Assembly (NCBI RefSeq): GCF_050920415.1
Contig: NZ_CP169309.1
DNA from: Escherichia coli
GTDB taxonomy: Bacteria; Pseudomonadota; Gammaproteobacteria; Enterobacterales; Enterobacteriaceae
Length of the DNA stretch: 64,000 nt
Reading direction: 5' to 3' (one strand)
The notes under the pieces were generated by a model. It saw nothing but the letters and a program-made list of their open reading frames with translations, ran no database searches and was not told where the DNA came from. This document shows, piece by piece, positions 19,783 to 64,000 of the stretch (within the stretch, counting starts at the first letter, position 1; each line of letters starts with the position of its first letter). The position numbers and the translations under genes are program-made.

Positions 19783-19941
19783 CTCAACAACTCCATAATG
19801 TTAACTTATGTGTCAATTCTACCATTTTGCGATCTGTGTTACATTTCTGTCTTATACAAAATGTATTTGTTGATTTACATCAATGTTGTGAAAATGCGGT
19901 TTGTGGATACTACAACCAACGAAACAACGGAGGGTAAGACA

Positions 19942-26511: not shown

Positions 26512-26617
26512 ACCGTGAATGCCAAAATGGATTGATAGCGTGATTTACAATATGTATATTTTACTCAAACGAACGGTAGTAAACAAAATGGCACAGTTTG
26601 GAACAGGATAGGACACT

Positions 26618-28119: not shown

Positions 28120-28308
28120 AAAACCCCCATAAGTTACATTTTGTATATATCTTTACGCGCTTCTACGCGAAAAATAAGATCTTCATCACAATGATTATAG
28201 CTAGTTTACAAAATGGCTTCACATAGCACACAACAAGATGTATATAAAAAGCAAGAAGAAAAGCAGTACCAACGAAGGAGGCCCAAAAATGAAACGCTAT
28301 GAGTAGTA

Positions 28309-31385: not shown

Positions 31386-31536
31386 GATTTAACCTCATGC
31401 AAAATGTGATCTATGCATCTATTTTATACAAAATGTCTTTATTTTAACGATACCGTTTTGTATAGATGATGTAGGGAAAGATAGAAGAGATGCAGGAAGG
31501 ACGGATGTCCCGGAGGAAGTGAAAGAGGATAAGGAA

Positions 31537-47733: not shown

Positions 47734-47815
47734 TTTTCTGCCCTCCGCATCGTTCTCTCTTCAGCTTCTTTATAACAAAATGGCACTGCCGAAACAATGC
47801 CATTTTGTAAACTTT

Positions 47816-50861: not shown

Positions 50862-51048
50862 CGTCACCACGCTTGTAAATTTTCACAGGCTTAATAGGGA
50901 TGGCGGGTAATTCACCTTCATTTAACGCGCTTGCCATACCCAATATTAAACGCGCTTCAGCACCAGTGACTTTTTTGCACCATGCGCCGCCTGTTTTATC
51001 TTCGAATAAGATAACGGCAAACTGATCGTTTATTTCCAGCTTATCCAT
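50848..51048 (-). CDS. Hypothetical protein (66 aa)
   Basis: Track ORF; ATGA overlap with the Q-like stop. Confidence 0.5.
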   Translation of the reverse strand: MDKLEINDQFAVILFEDKTGGAWCKKVTGAEARLILGMASALNEGELPAIPIKPVKIYKRGDDDEA

Positions 51049-51770
51049 TATTCACCCCGTGTTACTCGTTTAATCTCACTTTCCGCGCGGGCCTCTTCTT
51101 TGAATAGCTCAGCTATGGCGTCTTCATAGAAAACCCGGTATTTTTTCCACCATGTTGATCGGCTTACCGGAAAGACAAGCTGGTTAACCGCCTGCCGGAC
51201 AAGATCTACCGGGAAACGCGAGTACCCGCGCCCGCCGCAGTGTTGGCACGTTTTGAATACTGGCATTTCCGCCGCTTCGCTGGCTGCTTTATCCGGTATC
51301 TCGCCGCGACCTTTGCATTGTTTACAATGATTGCGAACCTTTCCATGCCCCTTGCATTTTTTGCAAAGGTGTTTTTCTCCGTAGTCGTCAAACGTAAATT
51401 TATATCCGCCGCACTCCATACAAGTTTTTTCCGTCGCGGCGCTTTGGCAATAATCCCGAAACGCGAAAACGGCAACAAGAATAATAAGATCATTGCGTTG
51501 TTCTTCATTTAATTCCATCACGTATTCGTAATCTTTCGCCATAGCTCTTAAACGCTCTGTAAGTAATACTACGGCCCTGTGTTTTTCGGCTTGCGATAGT
51601 TCCATCTTCCCTAAAAAAGCGCTATATCCAAGCTCTACGCGCGATTGCGCCATACCAGCGGCGGTAAGCGCATCCGTCGTATTAAGTGCATCAGGTGATG
51701 TTCCCCGGCTTTCGTCTGATAATCGCGGTGATTTTGGGAAGTGGAATTTAAGAATGGATTCTAAATTCAT
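51048..51770 (-). CDS. Q-like late-gene antiterminator (phage 21/82 Q-type, zinc-finger repeats)
   Basis: 240 aa; CKKCKGHGK, CKQCKGRGE, CQHCGGRGY CxxCxGxG repeats; directly follows rusA/ninG-like genes as in lambdoid nin regions. Confidence 0.6.
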   Translation of the reverse strand: MNLESILKFHFPKSPRLSDESRGTSPDALNTTDALTAAGMAQSRVELGYSAFLGKMELSQAEKHRAVVLLTERLRAMAKDYEYVMELNEEQRNDLIILVAVFAFRDYCQSAATEKTCMECGGYKFTFDDYGEKHLCKKCKGHGKVRNHCKQCKGRGEIPDKAASEAAEMPVFKTCQHCGGRGYSRFPVDLVRQAVNQLVFPVSRSTWWKKYRVFYEDAIAELFKEEARAESEIKRVTRGE

Positions 51771-53149: not shown

Positions 53150-53270
53150 AATGCTCTCTCCTTTTCAGGTGATTTCTACGCATTTCAGCGCTGCCGGATT
53201 TTTAAAGAGCATTTCGTTTGCTTGAAGTATACAAAATGGATGCACCTGAACAAGGCAAAAAGCGCCATTA

Positions 53271-53286
53271 TGTGACCAAAATCACA
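53271..53286. promoter_or_regulatory. Perfect CRP-consensus-core palindrome TGTGA-N6-TCACA
   Basis: TGTGAccaaaaTCACA read directly; lies between two inverted copies of the 14-bp element. Confidence 0.5.
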
Positions 53287-53308
53287 CAATGACGCCATTT
53301 TGTAAACT

Positions 53309-59088: not shown

Positions 59089-59508
59089 CTAAAAAGGAAT
59101 ATCGTCGTCGAAGTCCATCGGAGGCGGATTATTCCCGTTATTATTCTGCTGCTGCGGCGGCGCTTTCTGCTGCTGTCCTTGCTGCTGGCCTTGTTGGTTA
59201 ACATTCATGAATTCAAATTCGTTAACCGCCACTTCTACCGCAGTCCCCTTCGTGCCGTCGTTCCGGTCATATTGCCGAACATCCAGGCGACCGCTTACCA
59301 CTATTTTTCCACCCTTGCGGATATGTGGCGCTAATTTTTCCGCACGCTCGCCAAATACCAGACAAGTGATCCACATTACCCGCTTATTATCACCGTAGCC
59401 ATTCGTTACAGCTAACGGGAAGCTACCGATCGCTTTACCGCTTTGCGTGTAGCGGACTTCCATGTCATTTCCGATATTCCCGCCCAGCGTAATTGAATTT
59501 AAGCTCAT
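59089..59508 (-). CDS. ssb: Single-stranded DNA-binding protein
   Basis: 139 aa; OB-fold N-terminus; Gln/Pro-rich linker; C-terminal DFDDDIPF tip. Confidence 0.92.
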   Translation of the reverse strand: MSLNSITLGGNIGNDMEVRYTQSGKAIGSFPLAVTNGYGDNKRVMWITCLVFGERAEKLAPHIRKGGKIVVSGRLDVRQYDRNDGTKGTAVEVAVNEFEFMNVNQQGQQQGQQQKAPPQQQNNNGNNPPPMDFDDDIPF

Positions 59509-60149
59509 TAACCCATCTCCCCGTTAAGCTCTGATTTTCTGATCTGGTATACGTCGCTCGCTTTCTGTCGTTGCTCTGAGTTTTCAGGTAATAACTTCCA
59601 GCATTTAGCAAAAATATCTTTAAGTGCTTTTTCGTCCTGCGCTTTCGCTGCCGCATCACAGAAACGTGCTAATACTTCATCAGGATTTGGCGGCGCTTTC
59701 TGCTGCTGCGGTTGTTGTTTTGGTGGGTTTTTCTGTTGTCGCGGCTGCTGGCCTGTCTGCTTCGCGTAAGCATCAGTATCAGGATCGCGAGCATCATCTA
59801 TACAGAATAAACCGTTCAAAGCATATTTCCGCGCGTAACTTGATGTTGCTCCTGTTAGCTGGCTGGCGTCCATACCCTTCTTGCTTTCTTCCTCCCTGGC
59901 ATAAGCAGTTACCGCTATTACGTCTTCACCGTCGCTTAGCGTCGCCGTAGCTTTCACATAATAGCGATTGCCGATCAGGACAATTTCATCACTAACAGTC
60001 AGCGTGATATTTTGAAGCAGTGGTTTAACCGCCTCTAAAATATCCTCCGCCGACCTGTAATTATACCCGCCAAAATTATTACGCTGATTTTTCGGCGCGT
60101 TCAGCGTTTGCTGAATCGTCCATAGTTTTTTATGTAACTCTGTTTTCAC
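59508..60149 (-). CDS. erf: ERF-family single-strand annealing recombinase
   Basis: 213 aa (GTG start); NFGGYNYRSAEDILEAVKPLL and ATSYARKYALNGLFCIDD resemble P22 Erf. Confidence 0.8.
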   Translation of the reverse strand: MKTELHKKLWTIQQTLNAPKNQRNNFGGYNYRSAEDILEAVKPLLQNITLTVSDEIVLIGNRYYVKATATLSDGEDVIAVTAYAREEESKKGMDASQLTGATSSYARKYALNGLFCIDDARDPDTDAYAKQTGQQPRQQKNPPKQQPQQQKAPPNPDEVLARFCDAAAKAQDEKALKDIFAKCWKLLPENSEQRQKASDVYQIRKSELNGEMG

Positions 60150-60268
60150 CCTTTAATCTCCTTCGCTGTTAACACTACGTATAAGGCTTTATTCGCGGCG
60201 CTCCACATTTCGGCATCGTGAAGCATTTCCGCTACCGCCAGTTTGAATTGAAGCGCCCGAATAACCAT
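60146..60268 (-). CDS. Hypothetical 40-aa protein
   Basis: My translation: MVIRALQFKLAVAEMLHDAEMWSAANKALYVVLTAKEIKG; GGAGGTG SD; GTGA overlap with the erf start. Confidence 0.4.
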   Translation of the reverse strand: MVIRALQFKLAVAEMLHDAEMWSAANKALYVVLTAKEIKG

Positions 60269-60298
60269 AATGTCACCTCCGGATGTTTACATTTTGTA

Positions 60299-60589
60299 TT
60301 AATGGTAGCGGACTTTATCCAGGGGTTTTTCCCCTAAATGGCGTGGTTGCGTTGCGTGGTAGTAGCTGCCGCTTTCATTTTCCGTATACCATTTTACTGG
60401 TCCTTTGCGACGTTCTTTAATGCTATTTGGTTTGCATCTTTCCTCGTTTGCAAATCGAATAGCTTTATCCACATTGTCTGTTTTATTGATTGCAGGTGAT
60501 GATTTTCTTTCGTTTTCTCTTTTTATCCTTCTGCGTTCCCTGGCATTCAGTTTACTGTCACATTTGCCATACATAATTGTAACGCTCAT
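60299..60589 (-). CDS. Arg-rich 96-aa protein, N-like antiterminator candidate
   Basis: First gene after the PL-like promoter and nutL; NARERRRIKRENERK arginine-rich motif near the N-terminus; GGAG SD. Confidence 0.45.
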   Translation of the reverse strand: MSVTIMYGKCDSKLNARERRRIKRENERKSSPAINKTDNVDKAIRFANEERCKPNSIKERRKGPVKWYTENESGSYYHATQPRHLGEKPLDKVRYH

Positions 60590-60644
60590 AATCTGATCTC
60601 CGTATATCCTTGATGAAACTTAATAAAAATCATCTTCGTTAATT

Positions 60645-60682
60645 GCCGCACTTCCAGCGGCTGACCAGATTGTTAATGAGCG
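60645..60682 (-). promoter_or_regulatory. nutL-like site (boxA plus boxB hairpin)
   Basis: Minus strand CGCTCATTAACAATCTGGTCAGCCGCTGGAAGTGCGGC; boxA resembles TGCTCTTTAACAA; 5-bp GCCGC/GCGGC stem; shares GCTCnTTAAnAATCTGGT with the plus-strand site at 61901. Confidence 0.6.
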
Positions 60683-60936
60683 GCTTAACATCTTTCAACT
60701 AATCCCGCAATCATCGCCGTTCCCGGCGTGACCTTGCTCACTCCAAGCAAGCTGACTCGTCGCCTTGCGTGCGGTTTCGTGGGGGATGTAACGCTTTAAA
60801 CACCCCATGCGCCTTGTTATCAGTGCCGCTTTCGGTCCCCCATCGGGGAGTTACTCCACGGTTGACAAGGTGTTAAGCCTGATTTTTAAAGTGCCAGGAA
60901 GTTGCTTTTGTTACCTGCGCCCTTCCTTTGACTCGC

Positions 60937-60965
60937 AATATACGCCCCGTAAAACACCGAGTCAA
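60937..60965 (-). promoter_or_regulatory. PL-like sigma70 promoter
   Basis: Minus strand TTGACT, 17 nt spacer, TATATT; two copies of the 14-bp element immediately upstream (60967..60980, 60989..61002). Confidence 0.65.
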
Positions 60966-61060
60966 TCCATTTTGTATACTTTTTTAAAACATTTTGTATG
61001 CTATTGATATTTAAGCAATAAATAACGCTTCCTGTTTACGTTTTGGTGTTTTCCGGGCAA

Positions 61061-61082
61061 AGAAAAGCCGCCATCCGGCGGC
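61061..61082 (-). terminator. Rho-independent terminator after the repressor gene
   Basis: Minus strand GCCGCCggatGGCGGC followed by TTTTCTTTG. Confidence 0.75.
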
Positions 61083-61088
61083 TAATGT

Positions 61089-61736
61089 TTATGGCAGGTT
61101 TACGATCTTCGCATCAACCACCACACCTATGATTTTTGATTCTGGATTCATAGGGATTGGCGGATACAGAGGGTTGAGCGAACGTAAAAGCCTTTGACCT
61201 CCATCAATAATCAACTGTTTAAACGTCGGTATCTGCCCTTCCTCAAGCTGGGCTATAACCAGTTTGCCGTCAATAGCTGGCGCGTGCGGATCGACAAGTA
61301 TCATCGTCCCCGCTGGTATACTCAATCCTTGCGGCGCGTTCATTGATTCGCCTTTAGCTACCAGCCAATAACTATCATCTGAACAAATAACGCTAGTCGT
61401 AACGTGTGGTAATGTTGATCGCCTTGTATCATCCATATTGTTTACTGTGTCCTTCCAGTCAACAACCGGGTAACTGCCTAAATCACGCTGCGGCGCTCCC
61501 GGTAACGTGTTAGAAACAGAATCATCAATGACCATTCCATCATGTGTAACAGTGAATTGCCGACGACCAAGCGCCCGCATAATCCGCGCAATATCTTCAA
61601 GATTTGGCTCGCGGCGACCGTTAAGCCAGTGTGACAGGCCGCCTTTAGTTATCCCCATGAGATCCGCGAGTGAATCCTGGCTCATGCCTTGCGCTCGCAT
61701 GAGCTGCTTTGCTAAGTCATACCATTTTGTTTTCAT
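61089..61736 (-). CDS. CI-like repressor (XRE HTH plus S24 LexA-type autopeptidase domain)
   Basis: 215 aa; QDSLADLMGITKGGLSHWLNGRREP HTH; C-terminal GESM ... K pattern of S24 peptidases. Confidence 0.85.
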   Translation of the reverse strand: MKTKWYDLAKQLMRAQGMSQDSLADLMGITKGGLSHWLNGRREPNLEDIARIMRALGRRQFTVTHDGMVIDDSVSNTLPGAPQRDLGSYPVVDWKDTVNNMDDTRRSTLPHVTTSVICSDDSYWLVAKGESMNAPQGLSIPAGTMILVDPHAPAIDGKLVIAQLEEGQIPTFKQLIIDGGQRLLRSLNPLYPPIPMNPESKIIGVVVDAKIVNLP

Positions 61737-61795
61737 GTCGCTACCCTATAACCTCAAAAAGTTTGATACAAGTCACAAAATGTATTTTTCAAGTC

Positions 61796-61823
61796 TTGAC
61801 CTAAAAACGCCATTCTGTAAACT
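61796..61823 (+). promoter_or_regulatory. PR-like promoter
   Basis: TTGACC, 16 nt spacer, TAAACT; the -10 lies inside the element copy CCATTCTGTAAACT. Confidence 0.55.
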
Positions 61824-61900
61824 TGCAGACAAGGTAGGGCCATAGTTGCAAAGACGCAAGAAAAAAGATAACGGAATAGCACAAAAAGGCGCATACCTTA

Positions 61901-61934
61901 TGCTCTTTAATAATCTGGTGTCGCTGCGAAGCGA
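61901..61934 (+). promoter_or_regulatory. nutR-like site (boxA plus boxB hairpin)
   Basis: TGCTCTTTAATAA (12/13 to rrn boxA TGCTCTTTAACAA), 7 nt, then TCGCTgcgaAGCGA hairpin with a GNRA loop. Confidence 0.65.
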
Positions 61935-62041
61935 AAAACAAATATCACGCAACGGCGGGATCTGTTAAGCGGTCAATCACTGCTACCTAATACTAATGGG
62001 ATACCCGCCCGCGCGTTCACTCTAACATAGGAGAAAACACA

Positions 62042-62296
62042 ATGAGTATGCACATGATGAATGAAGTATGGAAATTAAAACTTAACAGCCCTATTCAAAA
62101 ACTTGTCTTAATGGCGATGGCTGAAAAGGCAGATAACAAAGGACGGGTACATGTATCACGCAAAGAAGTAGCCGCAATGTGTGAACTTCCTGTTTATACG
62201 GTACATGATGCCTTCGCCGCGTTAATGGATAAAGGATTTGTTTGTCGTCTTGATGCATTCAGTGATGTCTATGTAGTGATGTTGCCGGAGGAATGA
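62042..62296 (+). CDS. Small winged-helix/HTH DNA-binding protein (84 aa)
   Basis: Track ORF; GGAGAA SD; first plus-strand gene after nutR; SRKEVAAMCELPVYTVHDAFAALMDKGF. Confidence 0.5.
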   Translation: MSMHMMNEVWKLKLNSPIQKLVLMAMAEKADNKGRVHVSRKEVAAMCELPVYTVHDAFAALMDKGFVCRLDAFSDVYVVMLPEE

Positions 62297-62299
62297 TCC

Positions 62300-63400
62300 A
62301 TGAAGTGGTTTAAGCATGATAGCGATGCGAACCGCGATGAAAAGCTCCAAAACGTTTTGCTTGATTATGGTCTGGAAGGATACGGGCTTTACTGGTATTG
62401 CATCGAGTTAATAGCTTATGAAGTAGATCAACATAATCTGACATTCGAACTAAAACACGATGCGAGAATTATTGCCCGTAACGTCGGATCAACTCCGAAA
62501 CGTGTAGAAGAAATGATGAGATACTTCATCGAAGTTGGCTTGTTCGATTGCTCGCATGGCGTTGTAAGATGCCTGTCGTTAGCAAAAAGACTTGATCAAT
62601 CAATGGCTTCATCAAAAAGCGAATTTAGGGAAGCAATTAAAAGGCTAAACGTCAAAAAAAATAAAAAGTTAGATAATCCTTTAGTGGAAGTAAATAATTC
62701 ACCAGATACAGAAAAAGAAAAAGAAAAACCATGGCACAACCATGATGCAGCCATGGCACAACCATGTCATAGCCATGGATTAGAAGTAGAAGTAGAAGAA
62801 GAAATAGAAAAAGATATATACACTTCGTGTATTAGCGAAAATGGACAAAAAACGGTCAATCAGGACGGTGTAAGCGAAGCTGCCTTGCGTTGCCTGGCTT
62901 TCTACAACGAAAAGGCAGGATGCAAGTGTCGTGATACTAAGCCATTCATCGAACTACTGACAGAAACAAAAACACGTAAGGCATATACGGAGGAAGAGAT
63001 CACATTAGTAATTGAGTGGGCTTTAACCCAATGGCGTAGCCGTGGTGGAGTACCTAAGCCTATCAACATTTGCCGGGTAACTAAGTTTGATGGGTATCTG
63101 GCTGATGCTGAACAATGGCGCAAGTTATCAGCTACTGTAAACGCTGCCGACGTGGTGGGAGAATTTAACAGCACGTTTGACGGCCTGTTACCACCTGCCG
63201 AACTGGATCGGGATCTTGAACGCAAGATCTATGCGTTCACTGACTACCTGAAAGACAAAAGTATTAACGGCTTTGTCGCCTACTTCGAAACGTTCAAAAA
63301 CACGGCTTCAGATTTTTACTTCGGCAATGGCTTCACTGCGACACTTGATTTTCTGCTTAAACCAAAAACGCTACGTGATACACGCGCTGGCGTTCTTTGA
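62300..63400 (+). CDS. Replication initiation protein (DUF4373-like N-terminus plus conserved phage C-terminal domain)
   Basis: 366 aa; MKWFKHDSDANRDEKLQ...GYGLYWYCIELI is typical of DUF4373; C-terminal half resembles the phage replication conserved C-terminus. Confidence 0.6.
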   Translation: MKWFKHDSDANRDEKLQNVLLDYGLEGYGLYWYCIELIAYEVDQHNLTFELKHDARIIARNVGSTPKRVEEMMRYFIEVGLFDCSHGVVRCLSLAKRLDQSMASSKSEFREAIKRLNVKKNKKLDNPLVEVNNSPDTEKEKEKPWHNHDAAMAQPCHSHGLEVEVEEEIEKDIYTSCISENGQKTVNQDGVSEAALRCLAFYNEKAGCKCRDTKPFIELLTETKTRKAYTEEEITLVIEWALTQWRSRGGVPKPINICRVTKFDGYLADAEQWRKLSATVNAADVVGEFNSTFDGLLPPAELDRDLERKIYAFTDYLKDKSINGFVAYFETFKNTASDFYFGNGFTATLDFLLKPKTLRDTRAGVL

Positions 63401-63533
63401 CCAACCACGATCCGCAAAAATCCAAAATTACCCATAAAACAACCTCACCAGCGAGCTAAATAGCATATGCTGCTACACTTGCTTACCTTTTTGCGATTAG
63501 CTCGTTATAGAGCGTTACAGAGAGGATTTTAAA

Positions 63534-63635
63534 ATGGACGGTAAACACGTTTTCGCCCTGGCCTTTGCCATCGCTGCGGCAATCGCTGTTAACGTCGCTT
63601 TGTTCGGCGGTTTGTACCTTCTCGTTAATCCATAA
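63534..63635 (+). CDS. 33-aa single-TM peptide
   Basis: My translation: MDGKHVFALAFAIAAAIAVNVALFGGLYLLVNP; AGAGG SD. Confidence 0.35.
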   Translation: MDGKHVFALAFAIAAAIAVNVALFGGLYLLVNP

Positions 63636-63796
63636 CCTACCTACCAGTCTGTAAATCGAAAATTAGCCACCTGATAGCGCCTCTGGCGCAAAAAAGACAC
63701 TGCACCCTTACAAGTGGGTTACGCGGTGGAATTTTGCGTTGTAGCGCGTTTTACGGAAAATAAATATACATTCTGTAAACATGAGGAAGTAACATT

Positions 63797-64000
63797 ATGT
63801 CGCAAAGAAAGATCAGCGATGAGGAATTAATCGCTGAGTACAAGAAGGGGAAAACTTACAAGCAAATAGCCGAAGAATATGGAATGGCAAAACGCAACGT
63901 CGAACGACTGGGCGCGCGGTTGGCGAAACGCGGTTTAATATCCACGCGTCGCGCGCCGGGTTTTGGCGTCAATGGTGAGTCTTTGCTCGTTGATAAAGAT
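63797..64000 (+). CDS. HTH protein, 5' part (continues beyond window)
   Basis: MSQRKISDEELIAEYKKGKTYKQIAEEYGMAKRNVERL resembles resolvase/sigma-type HTH; GAGGAAG SD; open to the window end. Confidence 0.4.
   Translation, partial: MSQRKISDEELIAEYKKGKTYKQIAEEYGMAKRNVERLGARLAKRGLISTRRAPGFGVNGESLLVDKD

Follow-up and report, generated by a model that had tools for sequence, protein, structure and literature searches.

A lambda-N-style antitermination module with three nut sites in the early region of an mEp021-like Escherichia coli prophage

The window analysed here is a stretch of 64,000 nts of Escherichia coli DNA (assembly GCF_050920415.1, contig NZ_CP169309.1), in which an initial annotation, made from the sequence alone, had described an antitermination module at 60299-61934. 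A CI-like repressor gene lies between two divergent early promoters, each followed by a leader with a nut site, and the minus-strand operon runs on from a small N-like gene to a Q-like gene. The features are as follows.

51048..51770, minus strand: late antiterminator gene, Q-like (Pfam Antiterm), at the far end of the gp17 operon
53178..53210, minus strand: nutR2, the third nut site, flanked by the cytosine methyltransferase gene and ninF-ninG-rusA-Q
53226..53253, minus strand: putative extra promoter, TTGTTC-16-TATACT, about 15 nts 5′ of the nutR2 boxA
53261..53296, minus strand: terminator-like 16-bp hairpin with a T-run just 5′ of nutR2 (its equivalent is TERM_4 in mEp021)
60299..60589, minus strand: gp17-like gene, 96-aa N-like antiterminator (phrog_271; 94.8% aa identity to mEp021_17, Gp17)
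60645..60682, minus strand: nutR1, upstream of gp17, called from sequence, fold and conservation; its position fits nutR1 as described in the passages retrieved from PMC11893012
60683..60895, minus strand: optional leader segment of 213 nts, between the gp17 promoter and nutR1
60937..60965, minus strand: sigma-70 promoter of the gp17 operon, TTGACT-17-TATATT (10/12, tied best in a 12-kb scan)
60967..61001, minus strand: two direct operator-like 13-mers, GCATACAAAATGT and GTATACAAAATGG, 22 bp apart, just 5′ of the -35 hexamer
61066..61083, minus strand: predicted intrinsic terminator 3′ of the repressor gene (TERM_1 in mEp021; invariant in relatives)
61089..61736, minus strand: CI-like repressor (HTH_3 and Peptidase_S24), counterpart of mEp021 Rep021 (gp15)
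61796..61823, plus strand: promoter of the divergent (replication) operon, TTGACC-16-TAAACT, both overlapped and flanked by operator-like 13-mers
61901..61934, plus strand: nutL, in the leader of the replication genes, called from sequence, fold and conservation

Over 60250-62050, the DNA shares 93% identity with coliphage mEp021, and six mEp phages match the early region at 91-93% identity. Among the E. coli prophage matches, the 15 best listed reach 95-97% identity; of 34 matching genomes altogether, 5 lie at 80-90%. The gene tables of the prophage and mEp021 agree, and near-identity together with gene order places the prophage in the mEpimmI group. No tRNA or tmRNA was predicted in the window by ARAGORN. 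In mEp021, Gp17 was described as the lambda-N-like protein behind early antitermination (PMC11893012, section 3.5, citing Valencia-Toxqui et al. 2023). According to the passages retrieved from that paper, it acts on three functional nut sites, nutR1, nutL and nutR2, in a manner dependent upon Nus factors (PMC11893012). The sites are described there by position, nutR1 being 5′ of gp17, nutL 5′ of the repressor gene and nutR2 3′ of the gene for the cytosine methyltransferase, and it is from this description that the mEp021 nut coordinates used here were inferred.

PHROG 271, “anti-termination protein N-like”, is matched by the 96-aa protein along its entire length (E=1.2e-11) and also by lambda N (E=4e-23). 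This match and the identity to mEp021 Gp17 support the lambda-N-style reading of the initial annotation, and no other protein family was assigned. The arginine-rich motif seen at that stage is indeed N-terminal (residues 15-29, NARERRRIKRENERK). In an alignment of 16 family members, N15, A16, R17, R20 and R24 are invariant, R19 and R21 reach a conservation of at least 90%, and R17, R19, R20 and R24 were reported to be conserved in Gp17 in the passages retrieved from PMC11893012. The C-terminal half, KWY..ENESG..LGEKPLDKVRYH, is likewise conserved. Pfam N_peptide gives 16.9 bits for the 96-aa protein against a gathering cut-off of 27.9, and 14 of the 16 family members match this model weakly, every score lying below the gathering score. 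An hhalign comparison of the Gp17 family with lambda N alone was not significant (probability 1.8%, over 11 columns around KWY/TWY). Searches with Gp17 gave no match in NCBIfam, no meaningful relative among PDB sequences and none in GTDB species-representative genomes, and only 4 clusters were recovered when 1.84 billion representative proteins were searched exhaustively with an HMM.

Both divergent leaders carry a near-identical segment followed by a short GC hairpin, as first described, with matches of 12/13 and 11/13 to the boxA consensus TGCTCTTTAACAA. On the plus strand, nutL begins with TGCTCTTTAATAATCTGGTG (61901-61920), which includes the boxA GCTCTTTAATAA at 61902-61913, and continues with the boxB UCGC-U-GCGA-A-GCGA at 61921-61934 (DNA TCGCT-gcga-AGCGA), whose GCGA loop, correctly recognized as GNRA, is one of the GNRA variants of the group. 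On the minus strand, nutR1 begins with CGCTCATTAACAATCTGGTCA (60682-60662; boxA GCTCATTAACAA at 60681-60670), followed by the boxB GCCGC-UGGAAGU-GCGGC at 60661-60645. Its loop, UGGAAGU, is an exception and not a plain GNRA tetraloop. The distance of 55 nts given between this site and the 96-aa ORF was confirmed, measured from the end of boxB to the gp17 ATG. The 18-mer shared by the two sites, GCTCWTTAAYAATCTGGT, occurs three times in the window with at most 3 mismatches, against 0.2 expected, a count of three being reached in 1 of 100 shuffles; looser boxA searches gave 14 matches against 6.4 expected. The third 18-mer match (53210-53193, minus strand) is also followed by a hairpin and corresponds to nutR2, with boxA GCTCTTTAAAAA at 53210-53199 and boxB GCGC-UGAAAU-GCGU at 53191-53178. 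The pair of nut sites proposed initially is real and conserved, with the amendment that nutR2 had been missed and that the sites number three. The near-likeness of the nutL and nutR1 spacers (..TAAYAATCTGGT) is peculiar to the window; in every other locus with the site, nutL has GCTCTTTAAAAA and then tccggtg, cccggtg or something very similar.

All three nut sites are syntenic in essentially every related locus extending far enough (about 60 loci), and boxA and boxB are kept in all the related phages examined. Across these loci, both partners have changed in 4 of the 5 boxB stem pairs, with a covariation score of 0.473 against 0.170 ± 0.038 for shuffles, none of 500 of which reached 0.473, and at most 0.095 with slid partners. 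The loop variants GAAA, GCGA, GUGA and GCAA are all GNRA, flanked by U on one side and U or A on the other. When the leaders were folded, as had been suggested, the minimum-free-energy structures contained both the nutL and the nutR1 hairpins. Taken alone, the hairpins are no stabler than shuffled sequence (z of -0.2 to -0.5 for nutL and nutR1, +0.29 for nutR2), and the fold of the nutL leader is not significant (z = -0.92). The support for the boxB hairpins is thus their position and covariation, not their thermodynamics.

The same data weigh on the idea that boxA acts alone, as in rrn operons, through Nus factors only, with Gp17 and the hairpins dispensable and Gp17 serving in another RNA-binding role such as translational control. 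The boxA sequences (GCTCTTTAAMAA) are nearer the rrn consensus than the boxA of lambda, which departs further from it, and boxA is the most conserved part of each nut site. Against this, a hairpin always lies 5-9 nts past boxA and its stem covaries, implying that the boxB structure is itself under selection, and lambdoid nut sites likewise have boxA ahead of boxB. Together with the dependence on Gp17 reported in the retrieved passages of PMC11893012, this makes a boxA-only mechanism very unlikely.

A distant homologue of Gp17 (P0034, 115 aa) is found in the same gene order, with one nut site ahead of the N-like gene and another directly past a cro-like gene, as in lambda. The nut stems of this locus are new (CGCU/AGCG and UUGCU/AGCAA) and their loops are GAAA. 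This homologue shows that the N-like family reaches beyond mEpimmI.

The promoter called initially ahead of the gp17 leader is present, and its -35 and -10 hexamers are kept in relatives while the spacer varies; promoter-like sites overall were no commoner than chance in the 12-kb scan. The operator-like 13-mer next to it also adjoins promoters in the distant relative L097. Copies of the 13-mer are dispersed through the prophage. The terminator at 61066..61083 divides repressor transcription from the gp17 operon. Further along the minus strand, terminator-like hairpins were found as pattern matches only at 56050-56024, 54271-54251 and 53296-53261, and no plus-strand terminator was predicted in the 2 kb of the window after nutL. 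The putative promoter ahead of nutR2 is overlapped by an operator-like motif, CCATTTTGTATAC. Its hexamers and this motif are kept in almost all of 44 unique relatives, among which the stretch between the hexamers is hypervariable, a pattern that would suit an extra promoter, possibly controlled by the repressor.

By analogy with lambda, early control would proceed as follows. Upon loss of the CI-like repressor, the promoter at 60965-60937 (minus strand) would transcribe the leader with nutR1 and then gp17. The arginine-rich N-terminus of Gp17 would bind the boxB hairpin of the nascent RNA, a GC stem of 4-5 bp capped by U-GNRA-U/A, and boxA, a near match to the rrn consensus GCUCUUUAACAA, would recruit NusB/NusE. 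This complex, with NusA and NusG, would stay on RNA polymerase and allow downstream terminators to be read through, those overridden being predicted from the lambda model. The same events are expected at nutL, in the divergent leader of the replication genes, and at nutR2. The latter is situated some 7.4 kb farther along the gp17 operon, past the terminator-like hairpin and ahead of ninF-ninG-rusA-Q, so that Gp17 would be needed to reach Q, the probable ultimate target of its read-through.

The sole unexplained feature of the region is the 213-nt leader segment. The structured leader of roughly 340 nts noted by the initial annotation consists mostly of this segment, which is optional, lies 5′ of nutR1 and is not part of the nut site. 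It is shared with mEp021 and present in 41 of 53 related loci, where it is GC-rich and nearly invariant; mEp013, mEp044 and mEp554 are examples of phages whose natural alleles lack it. PMC11893012 nowhere mentions gp16, and the passages retrieved from it do not discuss the gp17 leader. The segment opens with a degenerate boxA′, GCACTTTAAAAATCAGGC (60894-60877, minus strand), and is closed by a 9-bp inverted repeat in which GGCTTAACA (60879-60871) pairs with TGTTAAGCC (60691-60683). One of its helices shows compensatory changes; over the whole structure, 50 of the 58 predicted pairs never vary, leaving covariation uninformative there. Compared with shuffles, either strand folds better (z = -3.07 sense, -4.11 antisense), hence folding energy does not assign the strand, and the G.U pairs are the only indication in favour of the sense strand. 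Scanning 59500-64000, and separately the leader, against Rfam gave nothing credible, with best E-values of at least 0.44 outside the leader and of 9.5 for a 25-nt match on boxB. Beyond the group, no phage shows sequence similarity to the segment, and no copy of it was found in GTDB species-representative genomes.

Several roles were considered for this segment. A mobile or repeated element is ruled out, since each genome has the segment just once and invariably in the gp17 leader. A coding function (mEp021_16 ORF, 37 aa) is ruled out by the clade substitutions, which are mostly non-synonymous in this frame and leave the RNA helix intact. As to an antisense regulator, no complementarity to the prophage beyond chance was found. 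The segment could tune Gp17 expression or antitermination, as a decoy for NusB/NusE, a platform for RNase III or the source of a leader-derived small RNA. We tentatively suggest, as a possibility short of an even chance, that it is a new cis-acting structured RNA domain with a closing helix of about 17 bp which, with a possible third repressor-controlled promoter ahead of nutR2 and the dispersed 13-mers, would make early control wired unlike that of lambda.

A conserved, apparently structured RNA just past the early promoter, an arginine-rich protein in the position of N and the very weak likeness of Gp17 to lambda N itself would also suit a Nun-like exclusion factor, which would arrest transcription on the nut sites of competitors while the phage achieved its own antitermination through a cis-acting RNA, the 213-nt segment being the candidate. 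However, three cognate boxA/boxB sites are kept in the early transcripts of the phage itself. The segment is found in one transcript only and is missing from 12 of the 53 loci, which keep gp17 and all nut sites within reach, hence it cannot be the essential antiterminator. Furthermore, the retrieved passages of PMC11893012 hold Gp17 responsible for mEp021 antitermination and report Gp17-dependent terminator read-through past the phage's own nut sites. A Nun-like role is accordingly extremely improbable. Chance likeness of a small arginine-rich ORF and AT-rich boxA-like 12-mers, for which the shortness of the motifs, the looser boxA matches and the unremarkable hairpin stabilities could be invoked, has a probability close to nil, as comparative sequence data (an enriched composite 18-mer, synteny across about 60 loci and a distant relative, a covarying boxB stem and a protein matching a PHROG family) already refute it.

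The module at 60299-61934 is a lambda-N-style antitermination module, correctly read at the outset and already known. Very probably, the region governs immunity and early control in an E. coli prophage of the mEpimmI group (mEp021-like) and encodes lambda-N-type processive antitermination. As the rediscovery of a published system, the finding adds one further carrier prophage and little else. The comparison itself adds a sequence-level, covariation-backed definition of boxB for the group (a stem of 4-5 bp with U-GNRA-U/A), and shows where nutR2 lies with respect to a terminator-like hairpin and a candidate promoter; the optional, ultra-conserved leader segment 5′ of nutR1 is the item worth an experiment.

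Among known systems, HK022 Nun/put is similar in combining a structured RNA in an early leader with an arginine-rich protein located where N would be. In contrast to HK022, this phage has its own cognate nut sites, and, unlike put, the leader segment is optional in the group and confined to one operon, which speaks against a put-type antiterminator RNA required in cis in each early operon. P22 N (gp24) has an arginine-rich motif that likewise starts N-A-(K/R) and goes on R/E-R-R-R, and its boxB, GCGCUGACAAAGCGC, has a 5′ arm ending ..CGCUG, like most sites in this group, with a pentaloop and two nut sites in P22. This resemblance is a lead only.

Like lambda N, Gp17 is small and basic, has an arginine-rich motif at its N-terminus and is encoded by the first gene past a nut site in an early operon adjoining the repressor gene. 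In both phages, nut is made of boxA then a boxB hairpin with a GNRA-type loop, and both proteins match PHROG 271, whereas their pairwise sequence similarity is not significant. The prophage differs from lambda in having three nut sites instead of two, a boxA close to the rrn consensus, Q sharing an operon with the N-like gene and, in the window, no cro between the divergent promoter and its nut site. In its boxB, GNRA tetraloops closed by U.U or U-A take the place of the GAAAA/GAAGA pentaloop of lambda. Dependence upon Nus factors is a further likeness to lambda, as reported for mEp021 Gp17 in the retrieved passages of PMC11893012. With mEp021 the agreement extends to the same three nut sites and the same order, namely repressor, terminator, promoter, nut, gp17, a kil-like gene, erf, ssb and so on to the methyltransferases, then nutR2, ninF, ninG, rusA and Q. 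The two differ only by allelic changes, such as the nutL boxA and spacer (TAATAATCTGG in this prophage, TAAAAATCCGG in mEp021) and the hairpin 5′ of nutR2, which has a T-run in this prophage and lacks it in mEp021.

The region carries a lambda-N-style antitermination module, and this interpretation, put forward in the initial annotation, is supported. The system is already known and not new: experimental work on mEp021 and the mEpimmI group has established it, as related in PMC11893012 (Front Microbiol 2025). Positions 60250-62050 share 93.0% DNA identity with coliphage mEp021 (MH706966.1) and 91-93% with mEp010, mEp013, mEp044, mEp515 and mEp554, and among 5,426 complete E. coli genomes 34 have prophages with this region, at 90-99% identity in 29 and at 80-90% in 5. 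The counterpart of the 96-aa ORF in the mEp021 record is mEp021_17 (94.8% identity between the two proteins by tblastn). It follows mEp021_15, annotated as "putative repressor", and then a terminator, and it precedes genes for a 40-aa product, ERF recombinase and SSB. In the window, the minus-strand neighbours of gp17 are likewise the repressor gene, a kil-like 40-aa ORF, ERF and SSB, and the opposite strand encodes a small HTH protein and a Lin1244-type replication protein. The 40-aa ORF directly 3′ of gp17 (60146-60268, minus strand) gives a weak, sub-threshold match to Pfam Lambda_Kil (E=5e-5) and also hits PHROG 34942.

Main features of the region
61901-61920, plus strand: nutL leader segment TGCTCTTTAATAATCTGGTG, then TCGCT-gcga-AGCGA at 61921-61934
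61736-61089, minus strand: CI-like repressor gene, from matches to HTH_3 and Peptidase_S24 domains
60683-60895, minus strand: optional leader segment, 213 nt, GC-rich and nearly invariant in the alignment of relatives
60682-60662, minus strand: nutR1 leader segment CGCTCATTAACAATCTGGTCA, then GCCGC-tggaagt-GCGGC at 60661-60645
53210-53178, minus strand: nutR2, GCTCTTTAAAAA-tccggca-GCGC-tgaaat-GCGT

The leader sequences first reported for both strands are present in the DNA, and minimum-free-energy folds contain both hairpins, although shuffling these short segments leaves their stability about the same (z -0.2 and -0.5). The paired nut sites both exist, but a third copy at 53210 (minus strand) had been overlooked; the window holds three copies of the shared 18-mer, where 0.2 would be expected. 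In mEp021 the same sequence lies between the cytosine methyltransferase gene with TERM_4 and ninF, which identifies the third site as nutR2. The promoter TTGACT-17-TATATT (60965-60937, minus strand) scores 10/12 and ties for best in a 12-kb scan, which as a whole was at chance level (22 sites versus 21.7 expected). As claimed, the 96-aa ORF (60589-60299, minus strand) starts 55 nt past boxB and carries an Arg-rich motif, NARERRRIKRENERK, at residues 15-29. According to PMC11893012, gp17 is found in 48 of 48 mEpimmI genomes, with arginines 17, 19, 20 and 24 completely conserved, and its product, the lambda-N-like protein credited with early antitermination in mEp021, targets three nut sites: nutR1 5′ of gp17, nutL 5′ of the repressor gene gp15 and nutR2 3′ of a cytosine methyltransferase gene. 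Nus dependence is also stated there for the mEpimmI phages. The three boxA and hairpin sites of the window occupy exactly the positions so described.

Conservation of these sites was followed in 7 loci from assemblies and complete genomes, 45 from IMG/VR and 11 from metagenomes, with 2 further loci for a distant homologue. Essentially all loci reaching far enough hold the three sites in synteny. Across loci boxA reads GCTCTTTAA(A/C)AA, with single changes rare. The boxB stems vary by lineage and site (GCCGC/GCGGC, GCUAC/GUAGC, UCGC/GCGA, GCGC/GCGU, ACGC/GCGU, CCGC/GCGG, GCAC/GUGC and UGCAC/GUGCA) with pairing nearly always retained, the sole unpaired case being an A.C mismatch in nutR1 of one locus, L012 (GCCAC/GCGGC). 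In an alignment of 16 distinct boxB variants, four of the five stem pairs have changed on both sides, and covariation reaches 0.473, compared with 0.170 ± 0.038 in shuffles (attained in 0 of 500) and at most 0.095 with slid partners. The loop follows U-GNRA-(U/A), most commonly with GAAA and with GCGA in nutL; GUGA and GCAA are single natural variants that each retain GNRA. The exception is UGGAAGU of nutR1, in the window and most relatives, in which a U.G pair could conceivably close a GGAA tetraloop, leaving one U bulged.

The boxA and spacer of the window nutL, GCTCTTTAATAAtctggtg (61902-61920, plus strand), are unique among the loci examined, nutL elsewhere consisting of GCTCTTTAAAAA followed by tccggtg, cccggtg or a close variant. 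Since the window spacer is of the nutR1 type, gene conversion between nut sites is suggested. The roughly 100 nt 3′ of nutL (61935-62030, plus strand) are almost invariant in 38 unique relatives. A long-range stem, GGCGGGAU...AUACCCGCC, may form here, but the stretch does not fold significantly (z -0.92), and its one Rfam match is a weak "freshwater-2" (E=6.5).

The window Gp17 matches PHROG 271, "anti-termination protein N-like", over residues 1-95 (E=1.2e-11), the same family as lambda N (E=4e-23). Pfam N_peptide is weak on the window protein (16.9 bits, cut-off 27.9) and matches 14 of 16 family members, every one under the cut-off; searches of NCBIfam and PDB and a direct hhalign comparison with lambda N gave no significant match. 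The family is very narrow: grouping at 90% identity gives 32 clusters, a search of 1.84 billion 50%-identity representatives gave 4, and the species representatives of GTDB contain no relative. In the alignment of 16 members, N15-A16-R17, R20 and R24 are invariant and the C-terminal half is strongly conserved (KWY.ENESG.Y.HA.QPR.LGE.PLD.VRYH); on the model of lambda N, this half would contact NusA or RNA polymerase. A 3,778-aa protein, P0033, matches positions 35-82 of the Gp17 profile (E=6e-11).

An independent lineage, represented by the 115-aa protein P0034, a distant homologue of Gp17, supports the module as a unit. Its gene lies on two metagenome contigs (L097 4842-5189 and L098 426-773), and the protein has the arginine-rich motif RIRAKHRRAMRRKELQRE and the C-terminus KWYIQREDENYIHCKAPRNCGERPLDRIRYN. 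Gene order is the same: repressor, N-like gene, 39-aa ORF, ERF and SSB. The leader site, GCTCTTTAACAA-aatgga-ACGCU-GAAA-AGCG, stands about 50 nt past a promoter, TTGCAT-17-TATAGT. On the other side, a second site (GCTCTTTAACAA-tctgga-UUGCU-GAAA-AGCAA) comes directly 3′ of a cro-like gene (L097 3564-3791), the position of nutR in lambda.

The window nutR2 is preceded by a 252-aa ORF and a 16-bp hairpin with a T-run (53296-53261, minus strand), and followed by a 58-aa ninF-like ORF, NinG, RusA and a Q-type antiterminator (51770-51048). After the hairpin comes TTTTT in the window (53261-53296) and ATTCACC in mEp021 (L096 2588-2640), and about half of the relatives have a C.A mismatch in the stem, hence its role as an intrinsic terminator may vary between phages. 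In 44 unique relatives an almost invariant ATCCATTTTGTATACT lies 5′ of nutR2, preceded by a conserved TTGTY, with about 7 hypervariable nt in between. This is the conservation pattern of a possible promoter, TTGTTC-16-TATACT (53226-53253, minus strand), overlapped by an operator; such a promoter, if real, would give each nut site its own. With up to 2 mismatches allowed, the window contains 20 copies of the 13-mer GTATACAAAATGG, a candidate operator for the repressor; 2.3 would be expected, and 0 of 100 shuffles reached 20. Some of them flank or overlap the two early promoters and the stretch 5′ of nutR2 (for example 60967-60979, 60989-61001, 61810-61822, 53227-53239 and 53295-53307); the others are scattered through the prophage (for example 47800-47812, 31424-31465, 28136-28216, 26579-26591 and 19852-19864), in many cases as inverted pairs in seemingly intergenic regions, a spread that recalls "stoperators". 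The motif also adjoins promoters of the P0034 locus.

Within the leader of about 340 nt initially annotated as structured, 213 nt (60895-60683, minus strand) are a segment present or absent among aligned relatives. It is found in 41 loci and missing from 12 (present in 30 of 34 E. coli genomes and 4 of 7 phage records with the region), always in the gp17-leader context, and phages lacking it have a promoter-to-nutR1 distance of about 50 nt. Because a quarter of the group does without it, it is not essential for antitermination. No other non-coding stretch of the region is as conserved: relative to the L004 and L008 lineages, it is 94-95% identical, whereas the flanking promoter region reaches 83-88%, gp17 itself 73-77%, and nutR1 with the gp17 5′UTR 51-63%. 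It begins 5′ with a degenerate boxA′ (GCACTTTAAAAATCAGGC), and a 9-bp inverted repeat, GGCTTAACA...TGTTAAGCC, closes it as part of a helix of about 17 bp. Both the sense strand (z -3.07) and the antisense strand (z -4.11) fold better than shuffles. Covariation supports one helix only (about 60745-60722): three of its pairs carry two-sided changes within one clade, and it also shows U-A/U-G alternation and further G.U pairs, which favour the sense strand. Of the 58 predicted pairs, 50 never vary and thus carry no covariation information. Rfam gave no match, and no antisense target was found within the prophage. The 37-aa mEp021_16 annotated here in mEp021 is not plausible as a coding sequence, because substitutions are mostly non-synonymous in that frame yet preserve a helix. 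If any part of the module merits further study, it is this optional, ultra-conserved segment.

The lambda N mechanism is the best-supported account of the module. The arginine-rich motif of Gp17 would bind boxB in the nascent RNA and NusB/NusE would bind boxA; the complex, with NusA and NusG, would then render RNA polymerase resistant to terminators. Read-through is reported for mEp021 in PMC11893012. As in lambda, the N-like and repressor genes are co-oriented with a terminator and promoter between them, and the kil-like gene is in the same position. In contrast to lambda, Q and the nin-type genes also belong to the N-like operon, and nutR2 sits between the terminator-like hairpin and these genes. 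The other operon, whose plus-strand leader is ordered promoter, nutL, HTH/replication genes, runs directly from nut to replication genes without cro; the interval that separates the first replication gene from the repressor gene (61737-62041) holds no cro-like gene. The system further differs from that of lambda in having three nut sites, and in boxB loops that are tetraloops.
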